From an uncultured Phycisphaerales bacterium (GTDB lineage Bacteria; Planctomycetota; Phycisphaerae; Tepidisphaerales; Tepidisphaeraceae): a DNA stretch of 64,000 nucleotides. Every line of letters starts with the position of its first letter. Within the stretch, counting starts at the first letter, position 1. Below, piece by piece: positions 7,498 through 38,340 of this stretch. Position numbers and translations under genes: made by a program. The notes below the pieces were generated by a model. That model was not told the origin of the DNA, made no database searches, and saw only the letters and a list, made by a program, of their open reading frames with translations. The stretch covers positions 192,001-256,000 of the forward strand of contig CAVWVQ010000005.1 in the NCBI GenBank assembly GCA_963758525.1, read 5' to 3'.

Positions 7498-7656
7498 AAG
7501 CGGTTGGCCGAATCAGACGTGAAAACGCCTGCCTGGGCATCGTATGCGCCATCTTAGCAGAGAGCAGGCGCGGGACAAACGGGATTGCACATTGCCGCCG
7601 ATCGAAGCTAACCGAAGCCGGGTGATTGGAACGGGACAGGAGAGGGGAATACGGGA

Positions 7657-7840
7657 GGGACAAAGGGACGAAGGGACGAAGGGACGAAGGGACAGAGGGA
7701 CGAAGGGACAGAGGGACAGAGGGACAGAGGGACAGAGGGACAGAGGGACAGAGGGACAGAGGGACAGAGGGACAGAGGGACAGAGGGACAGAGGGACGAA
7801 GGGACGGAGGGACAAAGGGACGAAGGGACAAAGGGACAGA
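7657..7840. repeat. Tandem repeat, 23 x 8-mer GGGAC(A/G)(A/G)A
   Basis: Counted directly; 184 bp in the divergent intergenic region upstream of purC. Confidence 0.97.
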
Positions 7841-7979
7841 GGGGCGAAGTGCCGAAGTGAGAAGACAGCAGACAAGGTCCGATGCCGACCTTGCCGGCGA
7901 CACGGTCGTGGCTTGCCCTTCGCGGACTCTTCAGCCCCGACGCTGGAACGCCAGGCAGCGCGGGGCTATTTTGCAGGAG

Positions 7980-18573: not shown

Positions 18574-19311
18574 GTGAATACCGAAGCTCGCGTGCGTGCC
18601 GAGGAAATTCTCGGTTACACGTTCAAAAATCCCGCCCTGCTCAAGGAATCGCTCACGCATGCCTCGATTGCCGACCATCGGCTCGAGAGCAACGAGCGAA
18701 TGGAGTTTCTCGGCGACGCCGTGCTCGACCTGATCATCTGCGAACTGCTGTACCGCAAGTTTCCTGAATATCAGGAAGGGGACCTGACCAAGATCAAGTC
18801 GGCGGTTGTGTCGCGAAAGACCTGCGCCGAGGTCGCCAATGAGACGGGTCTGACCGACATGCTGATCATCGGCAAAGGCATCAGTTCGCGCAGCGCCATG
18901 CCGAGCTCCCTGGCCGCGGCTGTCTACGAGTCCATCGTGGCCGCGGTCTACCTCGACGGCGGTTTTGACGTCGTCAAGGACTACGTGATCCGTACGATGA
19001 GCCCCAAGGTCGAAAGCATCGCGGCCAATGCACATCAGCAAAACTACAAAGCCGTTCTCCAGCAACACGCGCAGCGCGTGATGGCTGCCACCCCCGTGTA
19101 CGAGCTTCTCGACGAAAAAGGCCCGGATCACAGCAAGTGTTTCGAGGTGTGCGTCACGATTGACGGCCGCCGATTCACCCCTGCCTGGGGCCCCAACAAG
19201 AAGATGGCGGAGCAGAAAGCCGCGCTGCTCGCGTTGGAAGATCTCGGGGTTTTCGCGGCAAACGAACTCGATCGGGCGATTGAAGCGATTGCTGACGTGA
19301 AGGAGGAGTAG
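18574..19311 (+). CDS. rnc: Ribonuclease III
   Basis: NERMEFLGDAVL signature; C-terminal dsRBD (GPDHSK.F, KKMAEQKAA). Confidence 0.97.
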   Translation: MNTEARVRAEEILGYTFKNPALLKESLTHASIADHRLESNERMEFLGDAVLDLIICELLYRKFPEYQEGDLTKIKSAVVSRKTCAEVANETGLTDMLIIGKGISSRSAMPSSLAAAVYESIVAAVYLDGGFDVVKDYVIRTMSPKVESIAANAHQQNYKAVLQQHAQRVMAATPVYELLDEKGPDHSKCFEVCVTIDGRRFTPAWGPNKKMAEQKAALLALEDLGVFAANELDRAIEAIADVKEE

Positions 19312-19474
19312 GGTTCAGGGTTCAGGGTTCAGGGTGTCAGGGTTCAGGGTGTCAGGGTTCAGGGTTCAGGGTGTCAGGATTCAGGGTGTGAGGGTTCAGG
19401 GTTCGGCAAAAAACCGAGATCCTAAAATCCTGAACCCTGAACCCTGAACCCTGAACCCTGACACCCTGAACCCT
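19310..19474. repeat. Inverted tandem arrays: 13 x AGGGTTC/AGGGTGTC, then 6 x GAACCCT/GACACCCT
   Basis: Counted directly; lies between convergent rnc and pyrE. Confidence 0.95.
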
Positions 19475-19509
19475 CAACTGAAAACCGCCGAAGGGTCGGA
19501 AAACGTCCT

Positions 19510-20031
19510 CTAAACCACCCCCAAATCCTTCGTCGTAAACAGGCTCTCAAACACATACCCCGCCGACTCGAGATTCTGTCGTGCGCCCTCCATCCGATCG
19601 ATCACGGCCACAATTCGATCGATCTTCGCGCCCGCTTGCTCCAGCGTCCTGGCGGCTTCGAGGACTTGTCCGCCGGTGGTCAAAACGTCCTCCACAATCA
19701 GCACTCGCTCGCCGGCGTTGAGTGTCCCTTCGAGCAGTTTGCTGGTGCCGTAATCCTTCTTCTGATTGCGGATGATGACAAACGGCTTCCCGCACTCGAT
19801 TGCGGTCGTCGCGGCCAGCGCCACCGCTCCAAGCTCGGCGCCGGCGATGCGATCGACATTGCTGTTCACGCGGTTGGCGAACAATTTTCCCAATGCCACC
19901 AGAATATCCGGCTGCGTTTCGAAGAGATATTTATCGAGGTAGTAGTTGCTCTTGCGCCCGCTGCGGAGCGTGAATTCACCGCGCAATAAAGAAGCCTCGG
20001 CGATCCGCTTTGCCAGTTCTGCTTGGGTCAT
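19510..20031 (-). CDS. pyrE: Orotate phosphoribosyltransferase
   Basis: GEFTLRSGRKSNYY.D, KDYGT, VEDVLTTGG. Confidence 0.95.
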   Translation of the reverse strand: MTQAELAKRIAEASLLRGEFTLRSGRKSNYYLDKYLFETQPDILVALGKLFANRVNSNVDRIAGAELGAVALAATTAIECGKPFVIIRNQKKDYGTSKLLEGTLNAGERVLIVEDVLTTGGQVLEAARTLEQAGAKIDRIVAVIDRMEGARQNLESAGYVFESLFTTKDLGVV

Positions 20032-20080: not shown

Positions 20081-20115
20081 GAAGCTGAAAGCCCACGGCT
20101 TAGCCGTGGGCTTTG
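20081..20115. repeat. REP-like / IS200-IS605-end-like palindrome, copy 1
   Basis: AAAGCCCACGGCT-T-AGCCGTGGGCTTT; the 35 bp are identical to 20550-20584. Confidence 0.9.
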
Positions 20116-20160
20116 TCCCGTGGATTTGCATCCGAAATTGTCGCGCGCGACACTTGATGC

Positions 20161-20727
20161 ATGCCGATCGCGTCACGTGCCGCGCCCGCATGGAACAACT
20201 GGTACCACGTCACCGTGCACGTCTACGGCTCGTGGCTTCGCGGCGATCCGCGCGGCTGGCGCGCCCGTCACCACCGCGAGCACGTCGAAGGGGATTACCG
20301 AAGTCCGCCTCCGGCGGGAGCCTTCGACCACCTCTACCGGCTCTCCAAAGCGTTGATGAAGCGCGATCGAATCCGGGTTGCTGCCGGTTTTCGCGAGTTT
20401 ATCGCCCGTGCCATTGCGGAGAAATTGCAGATCGATGCTATCGAAGTGCTGATCGTTTCGATGAGCGACAAACATCTGCATCTCCTGGCGCGGTTTCCGG
20501 ATCGGAATCCGCGGGAGATGCTCGGGTATGCCAAGAAATACGCGACGCAGAAGCTGAAAGCCCACGGCTTAGCCGTGGGCTTTGACCTCTAACTCGGAGA
20601 AGGCATCTGGGCGAAACGCTCCCACGCCGAACCCATCAGAAGTCGGGCGCATCAGATCCAGACCTTCCGGTATATCCTCGATCACAGGAAGGAGGGCGCG
20701 GAGGTTTGGCGATTCGACCGCCAGTGA
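20161..20727 (+). pseudogene. RAYT/TnpA-like HUH (Y1) tyrosine nuclease with in-frame TAA at 20590-20592
   Basis: YHVT...YGSWLRGDPRG, HLH motif (DKHLHLL); the same frame continues GIWAKRSHAEPI...FRYILDH to TGA at 20727. Confidence 0.75.
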
Positions 20728-20850
20728 GACACGGGGAGACACGCACGCCGGGGGCCATCTCAGTTTCCGTCGAAGCTTCGCACGGAGAAAGGTTGCGGCA
20801 ATTCTCGCCATCGAAGCGGTTGCGGCGCAGCGACCGAGTTTCCTTCGAGC

Positions 20851-20879
20851 TTGATTCGAAAACCTCCTGCGGCTATCGT
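20851..20879 (+). promoter_or_regulatory. Sigma-70-type promoter of tRNA-Pro
   Basis: TTGATT-17 bp-TATCGT. Confidence 0.55.
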
Positions 20880-20899
20880 GATTGAAGCGGAGAATGCTC

Positions 20900-20975
20900 C
20901 GGGGCGTAGCTCAGCTTGGTTTAGAGCACCAGACTGGGGGTCTGGGGGTCGCAGGTTCAAATCCTGTCGCCCCGA
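20900..20975 (+). tRNA. tRNA-Pro(GGG), CCA not encoded
   Basis: Acceptor stem CGGGGCG/CGCCCCG; anticodon arm CCAGA-CTGGGGG-TCTGG; T-loop GTTCAAAT. Confidence 0.97.
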
Positions 20976-21272
20976 TTCGACGAAACAAAAAGCCCTTTGG
21001 CGTTCATGTCATCTGGGTTCAACGCAGAGGGGTCGTTGTTTATCCCGCGCGCGAACCGTACGGCAGCGGGAGGCACCCATGCCTCACCGCCGGCGAATTG
21101 TGAGAAGGGCGCGTGGGGGCCGTTTCGGAGCCGCTCTTTGCGGAATGCCATCGGCGCCCGCAAATGCGCCTTGTTCCTCTTCCCCCAACTTTTCGCGCAA
21201 AAAAGTATTGATTGTGGCGCGGGAGGGAGACGACGCGCGTATAGTTTTCCATGTGGTACCAAGGCGGTTCCT

Positions 21273-21921
21273 ATGGAAGTAACAATTGTTCTTGCCGACG
21301 ATCATGAAATGATTCGATCCGGGCTCCGCGCTGCTCAAGCGGGAGAACGGATTGGTGGTGGTTGGAGAGGCCAAAGACGGGCGCGGCGCCGTCAAAATGG
21401 TCAGCGAGTTGCAGCCGCAGGTCGTGGTCATGGATCTGCACATGCCGGACCTCAACGGCATCGAAGCGGCTCGGCAGGTGCGGGCGGCCAGTCCGCGGGT
21501 CAAGGTGATCGGGCTCTCAGCCAGTTCTGATGAACATTCGGCTCACGAGATGCTCGACGCAGGCGCAGCGGGCTACGTTGGCAAGGCATCTGCCTTCGAG
21601 GACCTGGTCGCGGCCATCCGGACCGTGATGAGCAACAAGGTGTATATCAGCGAAGGCGTCGCCCGGGCGCATCCCCGTGCCGCAGCGGCAGGCGGCGTGA
21701 CGTCGACTGAATCAGCATTCGCGCCGGCCCTGTCGGCTCGCGAACGCGAGGTGCTGCAGTTGCTCGCCTCGGGAAAGGCCACGAAGGAAGTTGCGGCGGT
21801 GCTGCACATCAGCGTCAAGACGGCAGAGACGCATCGCCGCAATCTGATGGAGAAGCTGCAGATCGACAACGTTGCCGAGCTGACCAAGTACGCGATCTGC
21901 GAGGGGATCATCGCGCTGTAG
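21273..21921 (+). CDS. NarL/LuxR-family response regulator, frameshifted near 21330
   Basis: IVLADDHEMIRSGL then VVGEA..MDLHMP..LSAREREVLQL..ISVKTAETHR. Confidence 0.9.
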
Positions 21922-21929
21922 CCCGGGCA

Positions 21930-24900
21930 TCATCCGGCCGCCTGCGAAGGATCAGGCAACAGTGACTTGACCACCGCGAGCAGTTGATCGGGATCGATCG
22001 GTTTCCCCAGATGTTGCTGAAACCCCGCGTCCAGCGCCCGTTGGCGATGGCCATCACCGGCAAACGCCGTAAGAGCCACCGCCGGGACCGGAGTCAGCCC
22101 GCTGGATTGCTCCCATTCCCTCAGGCCGCGCAGCAGGGAATATCCGTCTTCTCCTGGAAGGCCAATGTCGCTGATCAGCAGATCCGGCCGGGACTGCTTG
22201 AGGGCCAGCGTTGCGGTGGCGGCCCTCTCGGCCGCGATGACAACCGCACCGGCCTGCCGCATCAATTTGATCAGCGCGTTGCGGGTTGCCGCGTCATCTT
22301 CCACGATCATGATTCGCTTATCCGTCAGATCGACCGGATCCCTGGGCCCGGCGGGTTTCTTCTTCCTCCCCGCCTGCTTCAGTTTTGGCAGCGGCAGCCG
22401 AACGACAAACGTGGCGCCCCGCCCGATTCCGTCGCTGTGCGCGTTGATCGTCCCGCCGTGGAGTTCTACGAGCTGTTTTGCGATCGCCAGCCCCAGTCCC
22501 AGGCCGCCTTCCGTGCGCGTCGATGCAGGCTCAAACTGCCGGAACCTCTCAAAAACGTGAGGCAGAAATTCCGGGGAAATCCCGCGCCCGTCGTCCTTGA
22601 CGATCATTTCGATCTCATCCTGATTCCGCCAGAGCCGGACTTGGATGCTTCCGCCGACGCCCGTGAATTTGACGGCATTGTTCAGCAGATTCCAGGCGAT
22701 CTGACGGAATCGTTCGGCGTCCAATTCCACGACGCCGACGTTCTCGTCGAGCTCCGCGGTGACGGCAATGGTCTTGGCCATCGCGGCGGGGGCGATGTTG
22801 TCAAGGGCATCCTTCAGGATCGGCACCAGCTCGACGTTCCTGACGGCCAGGCGCAACTTCCCGCTGGTGATGCGGGAGACATCCAGCAGATCCTCGATCA
22901 GTCCCCGCTGATCTTCCGCGCTGCTCTTGATCGCGCCTAATCCCTCGCGAAGCTGCTCGTCGTTATGGTTGCGATTTTCGCCCAGCAGCTTCGCCCATAG
23001 AATGATCGCCGACAGCGGCGTCCGCAATTCGTGACTCAGGGCGGCGAGGAACTCGTCCTTCAGATGATTGGCTGCTTCGGCCTCCGTTCGGGCCGCCTGC
23101 TCGCGCCGCAGCAGTTGAGCGCGATCCATCTCGATCTGCTTTCGGTCGGTGATATCCAGAACTCCGCCGATCAGGCGAAGCACTTTTCCGTCCACTTTCG
23201 CGGTCGGGCGTCCATATCCGGCGATCCATCGGATGGCGCCGTCGGGATGCAGGGCGCGGAAGTCGGCGGCGTAGTCGCTGCCCTGGGTGAGGGCGTGTTC
23301 CAGCGCGCTCGACACGTTGCTGCGGTCGTCCGGATGGATGCAGGCGATGAACTGCTCGAGTGTGCCGGTGGTTTGGTCCAATGGAATCCCCATGAGGCGG
23401 TTGTGCGTCCGTTCCCACGTGATGACGCCCTTCGCAACGTCCCAGTCCCAGAAGCCCATGTGGGCTGCCTCGATGGCAACGCGAAAGCGCTGCTCGCTTT
23501 CGAGCAGCGCCTGCTCGGCGCGCATTCGCTCGATGAGGTGCGCCGCAAGCCGCGCGTATAACCCAGTCACCCGGAGGATGCGCTGCGGCGGCCGATGCGG
23601 CTCGCTGGCGTACGTCGTCAGGACTCCCTGCAACTCTCCCTGCCGCGTCATCAGCGGCGCGGCCTGCGCGGATCGTTGGCCCAGCGCGGCCGCGGCGCTG
23701 CGAGCGGCGACGTAATCTCGAGCCGTTTCAAAGTCCTCGACGATCACTTGCTGCCCTGCGCGAATCGTCTCGGCGGCCGCCGAACCGAGCAGCGTTTCGT
23801 TAAAACCGGGCTCAGAAACCGTTGCGGGGGTAAAGCCGCGATGGGCCGCGAGCCGCAACGACTTGCTCGCCGGGTCGAAGATCTGGATCGCCCCCATGCT
23901 CGTCTCATGCAGCGTGAGAGCGGCATCCAGAATTTCGTCCAGCGCCGAGGACAGATTGGGCCGTGCCATCAGCCGTTCGGTCAGCTCGTGCAGGCGTGTC
24001 AGAGTTGTCAGCTCCGCGGCGAGGCGTGACTCGCTTTCGCCCAGGTCGGCGGCGGCGCGGACCCGCGTGATCGCGTCCCAGACCCGGTGGGCCACATCCT
24101 CGGCGATCGCGACCTCGGCGGGTGTCCAGTCGCGTTCCGTCGCCTGGGCGATGCACAACACACCGGCAAGCCGGGCGTTTTCCATCCGAGGCACAGTGAT
24201 GTGGGCACGAATCCGCAACATCTCATAAGCAGATCGCTGCTTCCTGGAAAGACTTGCCTCCTTCAACACGTTGCAAACAACAACCGTTTTCCCGGCGCGG
24301 AGCTGTTCCAACAGCGCGGCGTCATAGCCATTAAAATCGTATCGTGCCCCCGGGCTCACACCCTCGCTGACGAATTCGCGGACGAACGTGATGGTGCCGT
24401 TCGGCGCAACCTCGCCGAAAGCCACCCGGCTGGCGCAGGCGCGCACCCAGCAATCGGCTTGATTCAGCCCTGATCTCCTCCGAATCGGTCAACAAGCGCA
24501 GCGTGTCGGAAAGGACAACCAGAAAGGCGTCCCGTTCGGCCATCTGCCGCAGCGACTCCTCCGATTCCTTGCGCCGGGTGATGTCAACAAAGGTGACAAC
24601 GACACCATCGATTCGGTTGTCGGTGGTTCGGTACGGAGTGATCCGCCGCAGATACCAACGGTTGGTGTCCGCGGGAATTTCCCGCTCGCAGGTGATCAGA
24701 CGCTCCAGTGCGGCTTGGGCATCATGGGTGAGATCGGGGTCGGAAAACTTCCGGGCAAGATCGCTGAGCGGCCGGCCGATATCGGAAGCCAGCAGATCCA
24801 GCAGATCCTTCACCGGCGGAGTGAAGCGGCGAATGCGAAAGCGGCTGTCCAGAAACAGCACTGCGATGTCGGTGCTCGTCAGCAGGCTGCTCAGATCGTT

Positions 24901-27156
24901 CCGCGCCGCCTGATGTTCCTCGATCTTCGCCTGCAACTGGCTGTTCACCGTCGACAGCTCCTCATTGAGCGACTGCATCTCCTCGCGGCTGGTCTCCAGC
25001 TCTTCGTTGGTGCTTTGCAGCTCCTCGTTGGTGCTCGTCACCTCCTCGTGGGACGCCTTGAGCTCTTCGTTGCTGGTCTGCAGCTCTTCGACCGTGCTCT
25101 GGAGCTCGTCGCGCACGCTCCGCAACTCTTCGTTCGCCTCTTGAGCGTCGCCTTGCGGAGGCGCTTCGCCGGGCTCGGCGCGCATCTCGCCGTACTCCCG
25201 GAAGCTGACCAGGAAATGATCGGGCGCGGATTTGAGATCCAGCGGCGAAGCAGTCACCGCAATACGCACGCGATGCCCCGGCTCCTTCTCGATCCATCCG
25301 TCCATCACCGACACGGCGGCATTTTCCGCCATCGCGCGATGCAGCGCCGTGCGAATCGGCGCCGCGCGCGCTTTCGCGCGCACAGCGCCAGCAGATCGCG
25401 GGTCGGCTCGCCGCGGGGAGCACTCAAGAACGCTTCGGTGCTGCCATGATAAAAGACGATGCGGTGATCGCGGTCGACCGCCACCGCGGCAGGCGTGTGG
25501 TCCTCGAGGAGCGCGCGAGTGATCAACTGTGGAAGCGACGGGCGGACGCCGGGCGGCCGGGCGTCGGGGGAGGTGCGGGTGTTGCGACCGGCGCCCGCCA
25601 CGACGGGCAGGGGAAACTCCACCGCGCCGTGCCGTGTTGGGCCGACGCGACGGAAGATGCGTGCCTTCTTGTCGAGGGGCTCGAACATGTCGTCGACGGC
25701 GCTGACCGCGGTTTCGCTGGTTCCCAGAAAAAGCGCCCCCTTCGCGAAGCCCAAAGTGCAGCAGCCGGAGCACGCGCTGCTGCACGGACGGCTCCAGATA
25801 AATCAGCAGATTGCGGCAGGTGGCGATGTCGAGCCGGGAAAAGGGCGGATCCTGCAGCAGGTTTTGCGGCGCGAAGACCACGTATTCCCGCAATTCCTGG
25901 CGAACGCGGTAAACGGCATCTTCCCTCTGAAAAAAGCGTTCGAGCCGCGCCGGCGACATCTCCGTCTCGATGCCTCCCGGATAGACCCCGCTCCGCGCGT
26001 TCTGCAGCGTTCGTTCCGCCATGTCGGTGGCAAACACCTTGATATCGAGGCGCTTCCCGCTTTTCTCCGCTTCCTCTGCCAGCAGAATGGCCAGCGTATA
26101 CGCCTCTTCGCCGCTCGAGCAGGCGGTCACCCAGCAGCGTACCGACGATTCATTTTCCCGCGCGGCGATTAACGGCGCGATCACTCGCTCGCGCAGCGTC
26201 TCCCACGCCTCTGGATCGCGAAAGAACCCCGTTACATGGATCAGCAGATCATCCGCCAGCGCCGTCACCTCCGAGGGGCTTTGCCGAAGCAGTTTCGCAT
26301 ACTCCCCGATCTCTGTGAGCCGGCTCAGGCCCATCCGCCGCTGGATCCGGCGGAGCACCGTGGGCTTTTTGTACCCGTTGAAATCCTGCCGCGTGCGGGT
26401 GCGCAGAACCGCGAGGATCTCGCGGACGTGCTGTTGTTCGCGCGCGAGCAATTGCGCCGCGTCCGTCTCCCGGCCGCCACGCGCATAAGGATGATCGGCA
26501 TAGGCCATCAGCACGCCGGCCATGTCTTCGGGGCGCAGAATGTAGTCGGCATAGCCCGCGTCGATCAGATGCCGGGGCATCGAGGGATATTGCGCCGATT
26601 CGGGATCCTGCGCGATGCACAATCCGCCGACCACCTTGATCGCCTGCGCGCCGGCCGAGCCGTTGCTCCCCATCCCGGACATAATGATGCCGATGGCCCG
26701 CTCGCGCTGTTCCTCTGCAAGAGATCGGAAGAAGTCGTCCACCGGCCGATTGTTCCCGGGTGTCGCGAGCCGTTCGCCCAGATGGAGCACTCCGTCTTTG
26801 ATTGTCAGCGTGTGACCGGGGCGGATCACATAAACATGGTCGGGCTCGATGGCAAGCCCCTCCTCCACCTCGCCGACATGCATGGACGTTCTTTTGGAAA
26901 GAATCTCAACCATCATGCTGTCGCGGTCAGGCGGGAGATGCTGAATCACCACATAGGCCATCCCGCTGTTGGGACGCACTGTTCGAAAGAATTCCCCCAG
27001 CGATTCGAGGCCGCCGGCGGACGCGCCAATGCCGACCACGGGAAACGGCAACCGCGGCGGAGCCTCGGCATCAATGGGCTGAACTTCCCTCTCGTCCGCA
27101 GCTCCCGCCGTCGCGGGCAAGTCGTTGGGGGCAATGGTCTCCTCATTGTCGGACAT
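21930..27156 (-). CDS. CheB-CheR-PAS-GAF-GAF-PAS hybrid histidine kinase with receiver; frameshifts near 25745, 25380 and 24445
   Basis: GIGASAGG, QHL, SGMGSNG (CheB); VTGFFRD, ACSSGEEAY, CRNLLIY (CheR); EELQSTNEE coil; SHELRTPL, GLGLGL; ISDIGLP. Confidence 0.88.
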
Positions 27157-27397
27157 GATTTGACTTTCTGCAGAGGCCAAGCGTGATGGAACGCAAGAGC
27201 CAGTCACATATATCTGCTCACTCTACCCTAAATCGTACGCCCGCCAACAACTGGCTGAGTGAGTTCGGCCGTTAACTAATTCGCGAGCGGGCCGGAGGCG
27301 ACCCTCCTCAATTTTACCGGTTCCGCGGATCGTCGGGGGGGCGTAAGTTTTTTGATTCGGAAAATGAGGGAGCCGTCATCTGATAAAGGAGGATCTC

Positions 27398-38048: not shown

Positions 38049-38306
38049 GGGAAGGCACCAAGGGAAGGCACCAAGGGAAGGCACGAAGGCACAAAGGCAC
38101 GGAGGCACGAAGGGTAAGGAATTGAGTAATAGGAGATGGGCGATTCGAAGCGATCGAACCCCCGCAATTCGCCGGCGGTCGAGCCGTCGAGGGTCTTCGG
38201 ACAAAGACGCGAACGAAGACGAAGGAACACGATCCAAAAAACGCTGCCGCGCAGCGTCCTTCCCTTCGTGCCTTCGTGCCTTCGTGCCTCCGTGCCTCCG
38301 TGCCTC
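38049..38306. repeat. Inverted tandem arrays (GGCACRRA)n ... (TYCGTGCC)n
   Basis: Left arm 38049-38114, right arm 38262-38306, between divergent genes. Confidence 0.9.
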
Positions 38307-38340
38307 TCTCCCTCCCCGCGTTTCTGCTATAACTTGCTGC

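Follow-up and report, generated by a model that had tools for sequence, protein, structure and literature searches.

A RAYT-like gene of an uncultured Phycisphaerales bacterium, found in a 64,000-nucleotide stretch of its DNA (referred to here as the window), contains within its reading frame a hairpin of the kind that also flanks it. The reading that we favor, and hold to be rather probable, is that a cognate 19-nt hairpin lies in frame at the end of predicted helix αC, that its stem is conserved, and that a segment of about 21 codons has likely been swapped along with the repeat type. The in-gene REP as such is already known; what is new here is the family, the site in the hairpin-reading helix, the link between the segment and repeat length, and the signs of swapping. 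The family bears on the question of how RAYTs change and spread REPs.

In the window, the hairpin is present as two 35-mers. The upstream copy (20081..20115, +) lies 45 bp 5' of the ATG at 20161, and the in-gene copy (20550..20584, +), at a spacing of 469 bp, is read in frame as KLKAHGLAVGF. The earlier note had reported this pair as identical, and it holds up: there are 0 mismatches between the copies, they are exactly the two occurrences in the window, and 100 shuffles gave none. The position of the inner copy between the HUH motif (H105/H107) and W150...Y171 was likewise confirmed in the sequence. Folding of each copy gives a stem of 12 bp closed by a loop of 3 nt (z −3.8 and −3.6). Upstream, a 4-nt foot (20088-20091) precedes a 19-nt core (20092-20110), with the stem extending to 20114; the foot and 19-nt core of the in-gene copy lie at 20557-20560 and 20561-20579. 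A CnGA foot (CTGA precedes the stems in the window) was dropped, as it is not conserved across the family. The 5' side of the upstream copy has 12 of 15 bases in common with the in-gene context, compared with 2-8 at other loci. Since this context encodes the conserved ATQKL inside the gene, the in-gene copy likely served as the template for the upstream one, in the direction from gene to flank.

The gene itself (20161..20727, +) comprises 188 codons with an in-frame stop at codon 144. Its HUH motif, H105-L106-H107 (20473..20481, +), is evident in the sequence and at least 90% conserved in 38 aligned carriers, that is, homologs with the same kind of segment. The segment of about 21 codons (Y127-E147; 20539..20601, +) covers the C-terminal half of predicted helix αC and the next loop. 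The frame had been described as open to 20727; however, an in-frame TAA at 20590..20592 (+), 6 bp past the inner copy and overlooked at the time, ends the ORF at 143 amino acids. Behind this stop, IWAKR...Y continues in the same frame, and the TAA thus removes the W motif and the catalytic tyrosine. The latter is likely Y171 (20671..20673, +) of the Y-I-x-x-H motif, by analogy with the HUH family, and is invariant in 38/38 aligned carriers. At the TAA position, 27 carrier homologs with the same spacing have K (10), Q (8), E (4), or five other residues. The assembly is error-prone, with frameshifts in 7/60 and inner stops in 4/60 regions (scored against relatives' ORFs, some possibly spurious), and one read run (share 0.09) covers only 20785-20979, outside the gene. 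Therefore, we leave the TAA between a real nonsense mutation, which we consider somewhat more probable, and an assembly error. By eye, all residues that are invariant in the carrier alignment are intact in the window gene, so any decay would be recent. The gene is likely inactive and has seeded no repeats in its own genome.

The protein had been described as a RAYT/TnpA-like HUH nuclease. The HUH motif, the fold matches, and weak profile hits speak for this description; the profile scores fall below their cut-offs, at 23.8 bits against NF047646 (cut-off 80) and 20.3 bits against PF01797 (cut-off 23). Among 38 homologs, 28 matched NF047646 at E <= 0.01 (best 1e-9) and two weakly matched NF033573; searches of PDB sequences found no relative. 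The structure model, which is that of the close homolog P0004 (pLDDT 80.4, pTM 0.74) and not of the window protein, has its best fold matches in IS608/ISDra2 TnpA (Z 11.0-11.7) and also matches E. coli TnpA-REP 4ER8 (Foldseek E 2.7e-4; VIA Z 10.0, rmsd 3.3, 124 residues aligned). Of 703 candidates, 539 were homologs, the best named ones being Tepidisphaeraceae and other Phycisphaerae, and the carrier alignment contains a conserved block, WLRGDPRGW..HHREH. Modeling supports the assignment of the window protein to the RAYT-like HUH nucleases of the broad RAYT / TnpA-REP type, with REP-dependent ssDNA cleavage and strand transfer as the predicted activity. The family resembles RAYTs and, as set apart by motif descriptions, is outside class 2 and class 3 of Quentin et al. 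2018, because it has no Y---NP or GTAG foot and no YV..EQ or bulged CnGA hairpin. The window gene is single copy in its genome, with the nearest paralog at 59%, and the paralogs are without the segment and are flanked by repeats of their own, which number 30 and 14 copies in the genome. Palindromes with TCTCCCGG arms form a further abundant family in the same genome (C1-C6), with 619 motif hits and about 84 perfect hairpins. This genome also has 14 or more Y1-like ORFs, which fall into several types, and, at G000:C3:3451436-3451873, a 5'-truncated near-copy of a non-carrier RAYT paralog with one downstream repeat.

In the P0004 model, the helix that follows the HUH strand runs from residue 121 to 138, with the first repeat codon at 137. 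According to the available text on E. coli TnpA-REP, its helix αC inserts into the hairpin's minor groove (PMC3479197), and Corneloup et al. suggested that short perfect REPs are read by this helix along with the stretch that follows it (PMC8266576). Equating the model helix with αC of 4ER8 is based on topology and on the whole-fold match (Z 10.0, rmsd 3.3, 124 residues) rather than on a residue-level map. So placed, the in-gene REP coincides with the end of helix αC, the one predicted to bind the hairpin. In view of what was described for αC of TnpA-REP and by Corneloup et al., it is likely the segment that sets which hairpin length is read.

Comparison of homologous loci indicates that the in-gene hairpin is old and has been kept as a paired stem across many relatives. 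The carrier pattern is present in at least 43 of the 119 listed homologs (the window's own excluded; two more were recognized by eye), with the exact AHGLAVG in 28; the remaining listed homologs have an unrelated, shorter segment at this site. A recent self-insertion of the REP in the window's genome, suggested earlier, is unsupported because the segment is common to many homologs. Locus DNA from metagenomes, genomes, and relatives amounted to 218 loci, 174 of them distinct at a score of at least 100. In 24 carrier loci, counted without L063, L126, and L203 (hairpin lost) and L205 (a near-copy of L067), 19 stems are perfect and 187 of the 192 stem cells are paired, compared with 34-43% in slid controls. 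Compensatory changes on both sides occurred in 4 of 8 pairs (10 cells), a level reached by 0/500 shuffles that ignore relatedness. At the peptide level, these changes turn G into C or R, H into Q or R, and V into M, L, or A, and therefore they are not demanded by the protein. The third positions of stem codons are fixed (Ala GCC in 22/22 and 20/23, Val GTG in 17/17), whereas 29 other four-fold columns have a median of 0.48 and reach 0.81 at most. Outside the stem, these genes favor GCG and GTC, and the loop codon of the hairpin is free, with 11 codons in use. Four further carriers (L063, L126, L203, L233) have lost the in-gene hairpin, and an in-gene hairpin of any kind was detected in only 5/131 non-carriers. 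L208, whose KAHGGPVG is similar to the motif, was rejected as a carrier and counted as a non-carrier because its stem is unpaired, its flank is 22 nt, and it is placed among non-carriers. Separate in-frame cognate 22-nt repeats are present in the β3-αC loop of L005, L107, L144, L164, and L167, which belong to the same RAYT family, and in-frame 22-nt repeat insertions were also seen by eye in L072, L134, L147, L103, L105, and L109. The β3-αC loop insertions are read as SPGI.IPGL or PTDSDPWA, and L143 has an in-frame cognate 22-nt repeat after αC in another reading frame.

The flanking repeats differ between carriers and non-carriers. In a survey of 159 scored loci (28 carriers and 131 non-carriers), the flanking core was 19 nt in 26/26 carrier repeats (20/28 loci) and in 0/141 non-carrier repeats (87/131 loci), 124 of which were 22 nt. 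A later set of 12 new loci contained three carriers with 19 nt, three non-carriers with 20-22 nt, and six loci in which no repeat was detected, and a set of 11 new non-carriers had 22 nt in six and no repeat in five; the segment-length rule thus held in 3/3 new carriers and 9/9 new non-carriers with a repeat. The proposal that the gene contains its cognate palindrome is supported in carriers by the agreement between in-gene and flanking 19-nt repeats, which match at 20.5 of 23 nt within a locus and 19.55 of 23 across loci (permutation p 5e-5, or 3.5e-4 without the window), and their foot variants mostly co-vary. The four hairpin-less carriers keep 19-nt flanks, and therefore the hairpin itself is not required for the flank type. 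The window gene has the upstream copy only and no downstream repeat. Downstream repeats were found in 8/27 carriers vs 51/118 non-carriers, and in 2/15 carriers with a perfect footed in-gene copy; that the in-gene copy replaces the downstream repeat is a weak proposition, which we do not claim, and the detector missed at least one such repeat (L058).

A genome-wide count of the palindrome, as proposed in the earlier note, returned only the two local copies here, with no further copy of the 35-mer at up to 4 mismatches anywhere in the 6.47-Mb genome, but dispersed copies are present in the carrier genomes of relatives. Eight carrier genomes gave 4-56 strand hits to the 19-nt repeat, and 54/141 family genomes gave at least one. 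Among the matches listed, the two commonest dispersed variants of G136 and of G137 include the in-gene sequence, and in G074, G044, and G157 the in-gene copy is unlike most dispersed copies. Among the matches examined, 19-nt repeats also occurred without a carrier gene in G019 (15 hits), G103 (88), and G105 (36). One control genome, G087, turned out to be that of carrier G157 and was dropped; 1, 15, 3, and 0 hits were obtained from the remaining four. There are no dispersed 19-nt copies in the window's own genome or in two same-genus genomes, consistent with a gene that is either dead or a recent arrival. G105 (2 contigs), G103, G076, and G069 have 18-88 strand hits with no RAYT match at E <= 1e-30 and represent either orphan repeat populations or unassembled genes.

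Trees and identities suggest that enzyme backbones have likely exchanged the segment, and the repeat type with it. When the segment is left out, the trees require 3-6 changes to account for the carriers, which form one clade in 0/200 bootstrap trees. The window's group is placed with non-carriers that include the paralog from its own genome (97/83 support). The mean identity of this group to those non-carriers and to other carriers is 75% vs 58% before the segment, 63% vs 47% after it, and 21% vs 70% within it; carriers and non-carriers have altogether different segments. In non-carriers L050 and L081, 22-nt flanks go with a backbone of the carrier type. In AU tests without the segment, monophyly of carriers was rejected with 68 rows (p 0.037) and with 43 rows picked after viewing the first tree (p 0.0003 and 0.009), and it was not rejected in a quick search of the 68 rows with four more columns dropped (p 0.22). 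Phylogenetically independent pairs number only two, and both agree (p 0.5, a test without power). Because the AU tests are mixed and there are only two independent contrasts, we regard swapping as likely, not proven.

The same observations may be viewed as the legacy of one ancient in-frame REP insertion that was tolerated and inherited as a passive passenger. Pairing would then be kept by template-switch repair, a mechanism that acts on palindromes, or by ordinary gene conversion, and repeat length would track the segment only by shared ancestry. The single AU test with p 0.22, the two independent contrasts, and the carriers that lost the hairpin with no change in flank type are all compatible with such a history, and Quentin et al. 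2018, in the portion available, view the in-gene REPs of subclass 2.4 as likely neutral. However, one clade of carriers is rejected by three of the four AU tests, the backbone and segment identities point in opposite directions, and L050 and L081 have the flanks expected from their segment rather than from their backbone. We therefore consider passive inheritance unlikely, albeit deserving of serious attention. Less probable still is that the hairpin has been retained for autoregulation, as a cis binding or nicking site or as an mRNA fold that limits the gene's own expression. Conservation of the stem far beyond the need of the protein, retention of the foot on the coding strand, and the ability of TnpA-REP to cleave at a distance from the bound REP, described in the available text of PMC3479197, would suit such a role, but most family members do without an in-gene hairpin (the 5/131 non-carriers noted above) and some carriers have lost it. 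Attenuation, which the earlier note had listed, finds no backing, as there is no T-run and the hairpin is absent from the terminator scan.

That the 469-bp piece between the direct copies is cut out or circularised, another proposal of that note, is very improbable. The copies in the window are indeed identical and direct, but upstream copies of relatives are mostly inverted: the foot of the carriers' nearest upstream repeat is on the opposite strand only at 10 loci, on both sides at 5, and on the same strand only at 1. Moreover, a lone repeat with only the 3' part of the gene was found in 0/141 genomes, and the piece would lack the catalytic tyrosine. We attach the least credence to the view that assembly or polishing created the second copy or the perfect identity of both. 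The frameshifts in 7/60 tested regions and the read run restricted to 20785-20979 lend it some weight, but the same in-gene core is present in the independent assemblies L036 and L111, and the same peptide in 28 protein hits, so that an error is confined at most to the identity of the upstream copy or to the TAA.

In the explanation that we favor, that of a conserved in-frame hairpin whose segment was swapped with the repeat type, the enzyme would act in cis, using single-stranded DNA from its own locus, and the in-gene hairpin would be for it a REP substrate like any other; copying among the in-gene, flanking, and dispersed copies would keep them in step. More tentatively, and with some doubt on our part, the 21-codon cassette could encode the hairpin-reading end of the helix with its loop and also be the hairpin read, such that its recombination switches a RAYT from 22-nt to 19-nt REPs and seeds the flanking and genome-wide repeats. 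If true, the cassette would amount to a self-templating specificity switch, through which REP 'orthoswitches' would come about. The family offers natural enzyme pairs that are about 75% identical outside one short segment and tied to different hairpin lengths; therefore, both the role of αC in REP specificity and that of the in-gene template are directly testable. The family also shows a stretch of putative DNA-binding surface in which the choice of amino acids is limited by the structure of the encoding DNA.

In-gene REPs have already been published for TnpA-REP subclass 2.4 (Quentin et al. 2018, PMC6006769 / bioRxiv 10.1101/279083), and the in-frame location between the HUH motif and the Y motif is shared with the window's family. 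However, as far as the available text goes, the subclass 2.4 inserts are variable and lie between β3 and αC, in contrast to the one fixed 19-nt stem at the αC end; the subclass has GT[AG]G feet and Y---NP instead of an AA[A/C]G foot and YIxxH (YILDH in the window); and its hosts are mainly Cyanobacteria and Bacteroidetes, whereas the named relatives of the window's family are Phycisphaerae. The accessible part of that paper describes neither compensatory conservation nor segment swapping for subclass 2.4. Class 3 TnpA-Y1 of the same work shares with our family planctomycete hosts, similar length (median 178 aa), a REPtron-like layout and, by eye against Table 1, the W[TA] motif (IWAKR here) and extended N-terminal conservation. 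Class 3 differs in having YV..EQ, bulged hairpins, and a CnGA foot, in contrast to YIxxH, perfect stems, and the AA[A/C]G foot, and the text at hand describes no in-gene REP for it. E. coli TnpA-REP / RayT (PDB 4ER8; PMC3479197, as far as available) has a fold that the P0004 model matches and the same order of HUH, W, and Tyr. Compared with it, the window's family shows 16-19% identity, has no GTAG foot, no bulge, and no NP after the Tyr, and adds a 40-residue N-terminal insert and the REP inside the gene. In contrast to IS200/IS605 TnpA (IS608, ISDra2), from which the best fold matches come, the window gene is single copy, has no adjoining tnpB and no Y---Q, and its relatives are accompanied by dispersed repeats rather than IS copies.

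Coevolution of RAYTs with REPs and REP switches have been treated before (PMC2817692, PMC3686654, 10.1101/2021.07.10.451892), as have intragenic REPs (PMC3733652), as far as the available portions of these works show. In the 'orthoswitch' of Nunvar et al. 2013 (PMC3686654), related RAYTs likewise become tied to a different REP variant; the mechanism was left open to speculation in the text available, whereas in the window's family the switch goes along with a coding segment in which the new repeat is contained. Our search, which left most subscription papers outside its reach, found no literature on this RAYT-like family or on segment swapping.

Downstream of the gene lies a tRNA-Pro(GGG) (20900..20975, +), and its divergent neighbor (19510..20031, −) is presumably pyrE-like, as judged by its motifs. 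No RAYT was found upstream of pyrE-like orthologues at either of the two matches obtained (the query matched 2 of 5 genomes tried, neither of the same genus). Two inverted arrays of a 7-nt unit, with 13 and 7 copies (19310-19404 and 19429-19478), lie between this gene and one that we take, again from its motifs, to be RNase III-like. Elsewhere in the window, frameshifts that are probably assembly errors affect a presumed CheB/CheR-PAS-like gene (24331-27207, −) and what we take to be the start of a response regulator (~21260-21350, +). Tandem arrays of 8 nt are present at 7655-7843 (23.6 copies at 7655) and 38049-38315, with shorter inverted 8-nt arrays near 38077 and 38263.
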